NCBI RefSeq assembly: GCF_024502345.1
Contig: NZ_JALDNN010000001.1
Origin: Escherichia coli
GTDB taxonomy: Bacteria; Pseudomonadota; Gammaproteobacteria; Enterobacterales; Enterobacteriaceae
Direction: 5' to 3' (one strand)
DNA length: 64,000 nt
The position numbers and the translations under genes are program-made. This document shows positions 7,929-62,331 of the stretch, piece after piece (the first letter of the stretch is position 1; each line of letters starts with the position of its first letter). The notes under the pieces were generated by a model. It was not told the DNA's origin. It worked only from the letters and a program-made list of their open reading frames with translations, and did not search any database.

Positions 7929-9614
7929 TTGAAGAAGGTTTGGCTTAACCGTTATCCCGCGGACGTTCCGACGGAGATCAACCCTGACCGTTATCAATCT
8001 CTGGTAGATATGTTTGAGCAGTCGGTCGCGCGCTACGCCGATCAGCCTGCGTTTGTGAATATGGGGGAGGTGATGACCTTCCGCAAGCTGGAAGAACGCA
8101 GTCGCGCGTTTGCCGCTTATTTGCAACAAGGGTTGGGGCTGAAGAAAGGCGATCGCGTTGCGTTGATGATGCCTAATTTATTGCAATATCCGGTGGCGCT
8201 GTTTGGCATTTTGCGTGCCGGGATGATCGTCGTAAACGTTAACCCGTTGTATACCCCGCGTGAGCTTGAGCATCAGCTTAACGATAGCGGCGCATCGGCG
8301 ATTGTTATCGTGTCTAACTTTGCTCACACACTGGAAAAAGTGGTTGATAAAACCGCCGTTCAGCACGTAATTCTGACCCGTATGGGCGATCAGCTATCTA
8401 CGGCAAAAGGCACGGTAGTCAATTTCGTTGTTAAATACATCAAGCGTTTGGTGCCGAAATACCATCTGCCAGATGCCATTTCATTTCGTAGCGCACTGCA
8501 TAACGGCTACCGGATGCAGTACGTCAAACCCGAACTGGTGCCGGAAGATTTAGCCTTCCTGCAATACACCGGCGGCACCACAGGTGTGGCGAAAGGCGCG
8601 ATGCTGACTCACCGCAATATGCTGGCGAACCTGGAACAGGTCAACGCCACCTATGGGCCGTTGCTGCATCCAGGTAAAGAACTGGTAGTAACGGCACTGC
8701 CGCTGTATCACATTTTTGCCCTGACCATTAACTGCCTGCTGTTTATCGAACTGGGTGGGCAGAACCTGCTTATCACTAACCCGCGCGATATTCCAGGGTT
8801 GGTAAAAGAGTTAGCGAAATATCCGTTTACCGCTATCACTGGCGTTAACACCTTGTTCAATGCGTTGCTGAACAATAAAGAGTTCCAGCAGCTGGATTTC
8901 TCCAGTCTGCATCTTTCCGCAGGCGGTGGGATGCCAGTGCAGCAAGTGGTGGCAGAGCGTTGGGTGAAACTAACAGGACAGTATCTGCTGGAAGGCTATG
9001 GCCTTACCGAGTGTGCGCCGCTGGTCAGCGTTAACCCATATGATATTGATTATCATAGTGGTAGCATCGGTTTGCCGGTGCCGTCGACGGAAGCCAAACT
9101 GGTGGATGATGATGATAATGAAGTACCACCGGGTCAACCGGGTGAGCTTTGTGTCAAAGGACCGCAGGTGATGCTGGGTTACTGGCAGCGTCCCGATGCT
9201 ACAGATGAGATCATCAAAAATGGCTGGTTACACACCGGCGACATCGCGGTAATGGACGAAGAAGGTTTCTTACGCATCGTCGATCGCAAAAAAGACATGA
9301 TTCTGGTTTCCGGTTTTAACGTCTATCCAAACGAGATTGAAGATGTCGTCATGCAGCATCCTGGCGTACAGGAAGTCGCGGCTGTTGGCGTACCTTCCGG
9401 CTCCAGTGGTGAAGCGGTAAAAATCTTTGTAGTGAAAAAAGATCCATCGCTTACCGAAGAGTCACTGGTGACTTTTTGCCGCCGTCAGCTCACGGGCTAC
9501 AAAGTACCGAAGCTGGTGGAGTTTCGTGATGAGTTACCGAAATCTAACGTCGGAAAAATTTTGCGACGAGAATTACGTGACGAAGCGCGCGGCAAAGTGG
9601 ACAATAAAGCCTGA
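7929..9614 (+). CDS. fadD: long-chain fatty acid CoA ligase
   Basis: 561 aa from TTG at 7929 ([14 protein letters not shown]...); AMP-binding motif [11 protein letters not shown]; ORF-track start at 7863 is a 22-codon upstream extension. Confidence 0.92.
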
Positions 9615-9633
9615 GCGTTAAGTCAGTCGTCAG

Positions 9634-9659
9634 ACGCCGGTTAATCCGGCGTTTTTTTT
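9634..9659 (+). terminator. rho-independent terminator of fadD
   Basis: acgccggttaatccggcgt stem-loop followed by T8. Confidence 0.8.
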
Positions 9660-9683
9660 GACGCCCACTAAAGAGAATACAAT

Positions 9684-10811
9684 TTGAATTACCAAATGAT
9701 TACCACGGACGATGCGCTGGCTTCTTTGTGTGAAGCCGTCCGTGCCTTTCCGGCGATAGCCCTGGATACTGAATTTGTTCGTACGCGCACTTATTACCCG
9801 CAGCTGGGGTTGATTCAACTTTTCGATGGCGAGCATCTGGCGCTAATTGATCCGCTCGGGATCACTGACTGGTCACCGCTGAAAGCGATCCTGCGCGATC
9901 CGTCCATCACAAAATTTCTCCATGCAGGCAGTGAAGATCTGGAAGTGTTCCTCAATGTCTTTGGCGAATTACCACAACCCCTGATTGACACGCAAATCCT
10001 TGCTGCCTTCTGCGGACGCCCGATGTCATGGGGTTTCGCTTCCATGGTGGAAGAGTATTCCGGCGTTACGCTGGACAAGAGTGAATCGCGCACCGACTGG
10101 CTGGCCAGACCGCTGACCGAACGTCAGTGTGAATATGCAGCGGCGGATGTCTGGTATCTGTTACCGATCACCGCCAAGCTTATGGTAGAAACGGAGGCCT
10201 CCGGCTGGCTACCAGCGGCGCTGGATGAATGTCGCCTGATGCAAATGCGTCGTCAGGAAGTCGTTGCGCCGGAAGATGCCTGGCGTGATATCACCAATGC
10301 CTGGCAATTACGCACACGCCAACTGGCCTGTCTGCAACTGTTAGCCGACTGGCGACTGCGCAAGGCGCGAGAGCGCGATCTGGCGGTGAACTTTGTCGTG
10401 CGTGAAGAGCATTTGTGGTCGGTAGCGCGTTATATGCCGGGAAGTTTAGGCGAACTGGACAGCCTGGGTTTATCCGGTAGCGAAATCCGCTTTCACGGTA
10501 AAACGCTACTGGCGCTGGTGGAAAAAGCGCAGACATTGCCGGAAGATGCCTTACCGCAGCCGATGCTTAACCTGATGGACATGCCGGGTTATCGTAAAGC
10601 GTTTAAAGCGATTAAGTCGCTGATTACTGACGTGAGCGAAACGCATAATATCAGCGCCGAATTGCTGGCATCGCGTCGGCAAATCAACCAACTGCTGAAC
10701 TGGCACTGGAAACTGAAACCGCAGAACAATTTGCCGGAGCTGATTTCCGGCTGGCGTGGTGAGCTGATGGCGGAAGCATTACACAATTTATTGCAGGAAT
10801 ATCCGCAGTAA
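9684..10811 (+). CDS. rnd: ribonuclease D
   Basis: 375-aa ORF from TTG start (MNYQMITTDDALASLCEA...); DEDDy 3-prime-5-prime exonuclease and HRDC family. Confidence 0.92.
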   Translation: MNYQMITTDDALASLCEAVRAFPAIALDTEFVRTRTYYPQLGLIQLFDGEHLALIDPLGITDWSPLKAILRDPSITKFLHAGSEDLEVFLNVFGELPQPLIDTQILAAFCGRPMSWGFASMVEEYSGVTLDKSESRTDWLARPLTERQCEYAAADVWYLLPITAKLMVETEASGWLPAALDECRLMQMRRQEVVAPEDAWRDITNAWQLRTRQLACLQLLADWRLRKARERDLAVNFVVREEHLWSVARYMPGSLGELDSLGLSGSEIRFHGKTLLALVEKAQTLPEDALPQPMLNLMDMPGYRKAFKAIKSLITDVSETHNISAELLASRRQINQLLNWHWKLKPQNNLPELISGWRGELMAEALHNLLQEYPQ

Positions 10812-11885: not shown

Positions 11886-12095
11886 TTAGTCCTTAAATAC
11901 CTGCGCCAGCAGATTATGGAAATGGGCGATACCATGTTCGGAAATGCCGCTACCGCTACTGTCGGCCATGATGCGCCCCTGACCACGATAGCCACGCGAT
12001 TTCAGCCCTTTCTGTACGCTTTCAACCAGACGTAAATCTTCCGGACGGAACACATCGCGATACCACTCAATCAGCGATTTTTGCTCGTCGGTTAA
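11886..12095 (-). pseudogene. yeaW: 3-prime remnant of carnitine monooxygenase oxygenase subunit; N-terminal Rieske and catalytic domains absent
   Basis: 73-aa ORF ends 56 bp upstream of yeaX and its 5-prime end overlaps the dmlR start region; tail LTDEQKSLIEWYRDVFRPEDLRLVESVQKGLKSRGYRGQGRIMADSSGSGISEHGIAHFHNLLAQVFKD matches my recollection of the YeaW C-terminus. Confidence 0.6.
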
Positions 12096-12119
12096 CTGGT
12101 GAAACATAAAACACGAATC

Positions 12120-62181: not shown

Positions 62182-62331
62182 TGTTGACTCCGAATGCTGG
62201 TTATCTATCCAGTGTAACAGGCGGGAAGCGATTAAAAAAGAGGCGGGTTGATGACAAAGGTTACACCGTCTGACGTGCTACGCCTGTCAGGCCTATTCGA
62301 CTCCTGCAATGCATTGAATTTGCATAGTTTT

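Follow-up and report, generated by a model that had tools for sequence, protein, structure and literature searches.

Two kinds of described systems in Escherichia coli come close to the start of rnd, the gene of RNase D, a 3'-5' exoribonuclease that trims tRNA. The first is represented by pcnB, which encodes poly(A) polymerase I (PMC3561954), and by infC with its AUU codon (PMC3592434). Like rnd, both combine a weak start codon with a poor ribosome-binding site. The likeness extends to the consequences, since these are products that are limited where their excess is harmful; in the case of RNase D, overexpression leads to lower tRNA pools and a lower growth rate (PMC6698664). A difference is that the AUU codon of infC serves the autoregulation of IF3, whereas rnd uses UUG, which is a standard, though weak, initiator. 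For rnd we know of no feedback loop. How weak UUG can be is illustrated by reporter genes, whose expression from this codon is six- to eight-fold below that from AUG or GUG, and a 1989 study of rnd is cited as the precedent (PMC3592434). The second kind comprises the A/U-rich enhancers bound by the ribosomal protein S1, such as those of the fepB leader, of manY and of the boxA-type element of rrnB, in which a U-rich tract 5' of a weak Shine-Dalgarno (SD) sequence and start raises initiation. The rnd mRNA has been placed among the mRNAs with S1-type enhancers of this kind (PMC7769764, PMC5934652, PMC2176067). Its initiator is UUG, and it relies on a U-rich translational enhancer (PMC7769764, with reference to Zhang and Deutscher 1992); this U-rich region is a binding site for 30S subunits and promotes the translation of rnd in vivo (PMC5934652, with reference to the same work). 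Unlike its counterparts, the U-tract of rnd also serves as the tail of an intrinsic terminator and as the 3' end of a small RNA, an overlap that is not described for fepB, manY or rrnB in the cited papers.

The UUG start of rnd has been known for more than 30 years, and the gene is a textbook example of a UUG-initiated, translationally limited gene. In work published between 1988 and 1992, Zhang and Deutscher reportedly described the UUG start together with an upstream GC-rich hairpin and a U8 enhancer. Their 1988 article in NAR reportedly matched the N-terminus, as sequenced from the purified enzyme, to the TTG-initiated ORF, and in their 1989 article in JBC a change of UUG to AUG reportedly caused a large increase in RNase D, of about ten-fold. 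Modestly new in the present analysis are a documented conflict with the annotation produced by PGAP and the breadth of non-AUG use among rnd homologues.

We analyzed a stretch of 64,000 nucleotides of E. coli DNA, termed the window; all features described here lie on its + strand and are numbered from its first letter. The window contains the genes tsaB-yeaY-fadD-rnd-yeaX in the same order as K-12. The rnd coding sequence (9684-10811) consists of 375 codons and a stop, and the product given in the ORF listing has 375 amino acids and starts with (M)NYQMITTDD. It is matched over its entire length (1-375 of 375) by the NCBIfam model NF008089, 'ribonuclease D', with 750.4 bits at a cutoff of 516, and over residues 5-372 by TIGR01388, with 544.7 bits at a cutoff of 298.95. 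Pfam detects PF01612 (DNA_pol_A_exo1, residues 3-169), PF00570 (HRDC, 213-279) and PF21293 (RNAseD_HRDC_C, 301-366), that is, a DEDD 3'-5' exonuclease domain and, C-terminal to it, two HRDC domains. Moreover, the product is identical at 374 of 375 positions, over residues 1-375, to the E. coli RNase D whose structure has been solved (PDB 1yt3_A), the sole substitution being K321N. The gene of the window and rnd of E. coli K-12 (b1804) are the same gene with the same control element: the start, the SD sequence, the U8 run and the hairpin are identical. What differs is position -6, which is A in K-12 and T in the window, and residue 321 as compared with 1yt3; neither makes a functional difference. 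The upstream neighbor is fadD, encoding a long-chain-fatty-acid--CoA ligase (7929-9614; RefSeq CDS mapped from 930-2615 of L001, with a Pfam AMP-binding match). It is also annotated from a TTG (7929-7931), with the sequence agaggtgaag just 5' of it.

The reading frame of rnd is closed on its 5' side by an in-frame TAA at 9669-9671, which is evident from the sequence and from the ORF listing. The four codons that follow, AGA, GAA, TAC and AAT, include no start codon. They are succeeded by TTG (9684-9686), by AAT, TAC and CAA, and by codon 5, the first in-frame ATG (9696-9698). No start-type codon of the ORF lies further 5' than the TTG, which is the sole candidate upstream of the ATG. A preliminary description of this DNA had claimed that only the TTG at 9684 yields the N-terminus MNYQMITTDD and that the first in-frame ATG lies four codons downstream of it. 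Both statements are confirmed, as the TAA shuts the frame and leaves no other start. The same description had taken the TTG to imply a low efficiency of initiation, which is supported by the UUG reporter data (PMC3592434) and by the reviews that discuss rnd (PMC7769764, PMC5934652).

Databases disagree on which of the two codons is the start. In the curated K-12 record NC_000913.3 the rnd CDS measures 1128 nt, and therefore begins at the TTG, and the resulting 375-residue form is also the one used by UniProt (RND_ECOLI), PDB 1yt3 and NF008089; both the UniProt sequence and the SEQRES of the PDB entry open with MNYQ. PGAP, on the other hand, chose the ATG, and with it a protein of 371 residues, in all five PGAP-annotated RefSeq genomes that were checked (an MG1655 derivative, O157:H7 TR01, NRG 857C, BL21 and SK1144), and in the public RNase D protein cluster the 371-residue form is commoner than that of 375 residues. 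Because of this split, an independent test of the TTG was called for. Were the PGAP choice correct, translation would begin only at 9696-9698, and the segment from the TTG through the CAA would belong to an untranslated leader. In line with such a reading, ATG is the intrinsically stronger codon (PMC3592434), and the alignment to TIGR01388 begins at residue 5. The Pfam match to the exonuclease domain, however, already begins at residue 3, and the 375-residue records named above speak against it as well. No entry for rnd is present in the supplements of the TRAINSPOTTER N-terminomics study and of the mBio 2024 riboproteogenomics study. The gene is also absent from the supplement of a tetracycline ribosome profiling study, but that list covers 'new start sites', so the absence is uninformative.

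We compared the start region across Enterobacteriaceae, using one genome per species. This gave 80 loci, of which the 78 with enough upstream sequence were analyzed. Codon 1 of rnd is TTG in 74 species and GTG in the other four; a non-start codon was found in none. The GTG occurs in a Kosakonia-type clade and in one further locus (L064), and since other Kosakonia species retain TTG, the switch from TTG to GTG must have happened at least twice, once in each of these lineages. Downstream of the start, codons 2-4 alternate between AAT and AAC, TAC and TAT, and CAA and CAG, respectively. The only non-synonymous changes in these codons are N2T, in six loci, and Q4H, in a single one. The same pattern is seen in the entropy of individual alignment columns, calculated on 69 distinct sequences: in codons 2-4 the first and second positions have zero entropy, with the exception of the second position of codon 2, whereas the third positions have values of 0.85-0.99. 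A three-base periodicity of variability thus begins at codon 2, and it is absent from the variable, non-coding positions -7 to -1. Frameshifting indels between 9687 and 9695 that leave the downstream gene intact were not seen in any of the 78 species. Codons 1-4 carry the comparative signature of a start followed by coding sequence, and as codons 2-4 vary almost exclusively at synonymous third positions, they are translated. This coding-type variation, together with a first codon that is exclusively TTG or GTG, is difficult to reconcile with translation from the ATG only.

Could the region 9684-9695 be conserved for the sake of the RNA rather than of the protein, for instance because it belongs to a ribosome standby site or because AUUUG and CAAAU form a small hairpin? 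The minimum-energy fold does pair 9682-9686 with 9693-9697, and the entire rnd leader is unusually conserved. But a constraint on the RNA would neither free exactly three third positions, while fixing the first and all but one of the second positions, nor confine the changes to synonymous ones. Moreover, homologues of 38-54% identity keep the N-terminal peptide motif with different nucleotides. We therefore regard a purely RNA-level explanation as highly implausible and return to translation of codons 2-4.

The exact 60-mer of the window around the TTG is present in 2,137 complete E. coli genomes and its K-12 version, which differs at position -6 only, in 3,258. The region is present in approximately 5,421 complete E. 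coli genomes, of which 5,395 have one or the other of these TTG-containing 60-mers, and single-base variants of either 60-mer with ATG or GTG in place of the TTG were found in none of the complete E. coli genomes. One start further upstream was considered and rejected. In 17 species an in-frame ATG is located nine codons 5' of the TTG (tttttATGggcgc); elsewhere it is either missing or in a different frame, and Escherichia and Citrobacter lack it.

A further argument comes from the sequence preceding the start. In the alignment of the 69 distinct sequences, positions -12 to -8, which read AGAGA, are invariant or 99% conserved, whereas positions -7 to -4 are highly variable. The AGAGA (9672-9676) is the core of a degenerate SD sequence, as indicated by its conservation, by its duplex with the anti-SD and by its recurrence in more distant genomes (see below). 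It is separated by 7 nt from the TTG, as opposed to 19 nt from the ATG. Averaged over the species, the best anti-SD duplex has -3.7 kcal/mol before the TTG and +0.2 kcal/mol before the ATG; in the window the values are -2.9 kcal/mol, which is weak, and +0.4 kcal/mol. The SD-like AGAGA is correctly spaced for the TTG and not for the ATG. Thus, initiation at the ATG alone would have to proceed with nothing resembling an SD sequence in front of it.

The ATG itself is nevertheless well conserved: codon 5 is ATG in 77 of the 78 species, the exception being L050, in which it is ATT. This conservation could be explained if most ribosomes initiated at the UUG and a minority at the AUG 12 nt downstream, producing a minor proteoform of 371 residues that lacks Met-Asn-Tyr-Gln. 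The AUG is embedded in an A/U-rich, weakly structured stretch, and in-frame alternative starts, the topic of PMC11005335, are common in bacteria. Against this stands that the AUG has no SD sequence at a usable distance, and that it has been lost in L050 and is missing from most distant homologues, so that a conserved requirement for this codon as a start is not apparent. The Met that it encodes at a hydrophobic position explains why enterics keep it. We consider dual initiation unlikely, if less so than exclusive use of the ATG. The reading we prefer is that the ATG (9696-9698), which PGAP and RefSeq use as the start of the 371-residue form, is an internal Met codon.

To look beyond Enterobacteriaceae we used a distant set of 139 full-length cluster representatives found among the best 150 matches, which are 33-54% identical to the E. 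coli protein and whose N-termini are predictions of gene callers. In 137 of these 139 homologues among the best 150 matches, the predicted N-terminus coincides with E. coli residue 1 or lies upstream of it, and in the other two it falls on residue 3; none begins at residue 5, the residue encoded by the ATG. At residue 3, 78 of the 139 full-length representatives from the best 150 matches have Y or F. At residue 5, W, L, Y or F is found in 105 of the same 139 homologues (best 150 matches) and M in only 10, again in disagreement with a protein that begins there. Many distant representatives keep an extreme N-terminal motif, x-(N/D/K/Q/S)-(Y/F)-x-(L/F/M)-I. Ten homologues that bear this motif, with identities of 38-54%, were inspected at the DNA level. 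Their start codons are GTG in five, TTG in two and ATG in three cases, in a sample of ten distant lineages that was taken without phylogenetic correction and with the start sites set by gene callers. In all ten an in-frame stop is situated 3-66 nt 5' of the start. Three of the distant genomes (L086, L091 and L092) have an AAGAGA-like motif whose spacing from the start equals that in E. coli. In L086 and L094 a hairpin with a T-run is found just 5' of the rnd start, following fadD, and in L095 the stop of fadD adjoins the GTG start of rnd. These comparisons indicate that the four N-terminal residues of RNase D are ancestral and that weak start codons are widespread among rnd genes.

Taken together, the in-frame TAA, the conservation among species and the start of the NC_000913.3 CDS identify the TTG at 9684-9686 as the initiation codon. 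We are highly confident that rnd is translated from this UUG into an RNase D of 375 residues that starts with Met-Asn-Tyr-Gln-Met, and that the ATG at codon 5 specifies an internal Met; translation exclusively from the ATG has, in our estimation, hardly any chance of being correct. PGAP places the start of rnd four codons too late. Anyone who clones, models or quantifies RNase D on the basis of PGAP records would lose four conserved residues at the N-terminus and assign the ribosome-binding site to the wrong position.

The leader upstream of this start contains overlapping elements. A run of eight T (9652-9659; U8 in the mRNA) is located 12 nt 5' of the AGAGA core. It constitutes the tail of a terminator and corresponds to the published U-rich translational enhancer of the rnd mRNA, the latter role being taken from the literature. 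A T-run of 5-9 is conserved in 51 of 51 aligned sequences. The GC-rich hairpin that precedes and partly overlaps it (9632-9654), identified by a terminator scan and by RNAalifold, is the intrinsic terminator of fadD, the 3' hairpin of the small RNA SroD and the hairpin of the rnd leader in one. According to the terminator scan it has nine pairs, six of them GC, a loop of five and a T tail. The RNAalifold consensus reveals compensatory changes at two pairs of the stem, from CG to UA and from GC to AU; at pairs 26-43 and 30-39 of alignment A1 both sides are changed in two and four sequences, respectively. Besides the hairpin and the T-run, a GGCGC box and the AGAGA motif are conserved across the 51 aligned leaders. 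An outer helix, CGCC(C)/GGGCG, can be drawn around the terminator, with a mean of -6.9 kcal/mol as compared with -4.2 kcal/mol in shuffled sequences; it is not recovered by RNAalifold.

SroD (Rfam RF00370) was detected by cmscan at 9573-9658, where it overlaps both the 3' end of fadD and the rnd leader. The match has 115.2 bits at a gathering score of 50 and covers the complete model (1-86 of 86). This agrees with reports that SroD is encoded in, or generated from, the 3' end of fadD (PMC5874903, PMC8313858). The terminator hairpin and the U-run are common to SroD and the rnd leader. SroD is nevertheless a separate RNA product, which ends 25 nt 5' of the TTG and has no part in the start codon. 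A match to snoR9 (E = 0.21) was dismissed as due to chance.

Within the end of fadD we noted a candidate rnd promoter (9577-9605), consisting of a putative -35 element GTGACG (9577-9582), a 17-nt spacer and a putative -10 element GACAAT (9600-9605), which match the consensus at 8 of 12 positions. Exactly in this segment the synonymous third positions of fadD are invariant among 74 distinct sequences. A consensus promoter scan of 9200-9900 found no promoter, and thus missed this candidate. The conservation of 9577-9605 may reflect a promoter of rnd, or it could equally be due to a function of SroD. Another candidate, a promoter with its start site at the 5' end of SroD (around 9573), was rejected, as it lacks a -10-like hexamer and the third positions at 9555-9566 show no conservation.

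The mechanism with the best support combines these features. Initiation on the rnd mRNA is intrinsically weak, owing to the UUG and to a degenerate SD sequence (AAGAGA) at 7-nt spacing. The U8 run approximately 25 nt 5' of the UUG, a ribosome-binding enhancer according to the literature, would lift initiation to a low working level, and the U8 run and the hairpin double as the terminator of fadD and the 3' end of SroD. The weak start probably serves to limit the amount of RNase D, a potentially harmful exoribonuclease, since an excess of the enzyme depletes tRNA and slows growth. Selection for a low dosage of RNase D may then be what maintains the weak codon.

The retention of a weak start on rnd well beyond E. 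coli fits with dosage control of an enzyme that harms tRNA when overproduced. That the non-AUG start is an ancient and selectively maintained trait of gamma-proteobacteria, and not an oddity of E. coli, is a tentative proposal, which we regard as possible while leaning against it. If it is true, the dosage of RNase D would be set translationally by a single compact element that is terminator, 3' end of a small RNA and ribosome-binding enhancer in one. Such an element could tie the synthesis of RNase D to read-through from fadD and SroD, or to the availability of S1 or IF3.

The start of rnd (9684..10811, + strand) is placed differently by different resources. In the annotation by PGAP, the NCBI pipeline, and RefSeq, the gene begins at the internal ATG, window position 9696, and yields a product of 371 aa (e.g., WP_001307844.1 and WP_001296131.1); records carrying this ATG-started rnd are NZ_CP169634.1, NZ_CP033605.1, NC_017634.1, NZ_CP170101.1 and NZ_AP018784.2. 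The 375-aa product initiated at TTG is used by the curated NC_000913.3, UniProt, the PDB entry 1yt3 and the NCBIfam model NF008089. The ATG call looks like a systematic mis-call of the start site. Across its 375 residues, the product encoded in the window differs from 1yt3 at a single position, codon 321 (10644-10646), which specifies Asn compared with Lys in 1yt3 and K-12 (SETHNIS versus SETHKIS).

The upstream neighbour fadD is likewise annotated with a TTG start (7929-7931, + strand; context aga ggt gaa gaa TTG aag aag gtt tgg), which is preceded by a good Shine-Dalgarno sequence, GAGGTG. A mechanical listing of ORFs also returns a longer ORF, from ATG 7863. With the annotated fadD start, the rare TTG start is used by two adjacent genes.

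Synteny of fadD and rnd is kept in the distant gamma-proteobacterial homologues L086, L091, L094 and L095, at 41-53% identity of RNase D, but the junctions differ. A hairpin followed by a T-run is found in L086 and L094, while the L091 junction contains an additional 126-aa ORF and in L095 the GTG start of rnd directly abuts the fadD stop codon, an arrangement that suggests possible translational coupling. Downstream of these distant rnd genes there is usually minE-minD-minC, not yeaX.

Elsewhere in the window, 3,741 bp are missing relative to K-12. The lost stretch comprises the intergenic region between dmlR and dmlA, the genes dmlA and yeaV, and yeaW up to its nucleotide 913. What is left of yeaW, a 3' fragment, meets dmlR at 12093-12097 with a 5-bp overlap. 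Among 5,426 complete E. coli genomes this junction was never recovered as one contiguous match, which makes the deletion unusual; both halves are present but apart in 4,378 of them. The source strain may thus lie outside that set and could be, for instance, a Shigella. An Rfam match to the sRNA ES036 (CssrF) at 62289-62331 (- strand) scores 38.0 bits, barely over the gathering score of 37.6.

Within Enterobacteriaceae (loci L025-L082, one genome per species), the CGCC(C) directly 5' of the terminator hairpin is, in most genera, pairable with a conserved GGGCG directly 3' of the T-run. Such pairing would enclose the hairpin and the U-tract. In the window the candidate arms are 9620-9631 and 9660-9666, and E. 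coli has CGUC/GACG at these places. The duplex averages -6.9 kcal/mol versus -4.2 for shuffles; the outer helix is absent from the RNAalifold result.

The last 16 codons of fadD contain third positions that are synonymous and yet fully invariant among 74 distinct Enterobacteriaceae sequences, at 9567-9584 and 9600-9605 (+ strand). The codons concerned are CGA GAA .. CGT GAC GAA, including the rare CGA, and (GAC) AAT, and the third-position entropy of adjacent codons is 1-1.9. This pattern fits a candidate rnd promoter with a -35 element GTGACG, a 17-nt spacing, a -10 element GACAAT and a start near 9612. It fits equally a second reading, in which these bases belong to the 5' part of the sRNA SroD (RF00370), as its single-stranded region and processing site. 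Rfam matches SroD at full length with 115 bits at 9573-9658 (+ strand). In its terminator hairpin and U-run, SroD coincides base for base with the terminator of fadD and with the published U-rich rnd translation enhancer, so that three genes or products share one element of 27 nt, 9632-9659.
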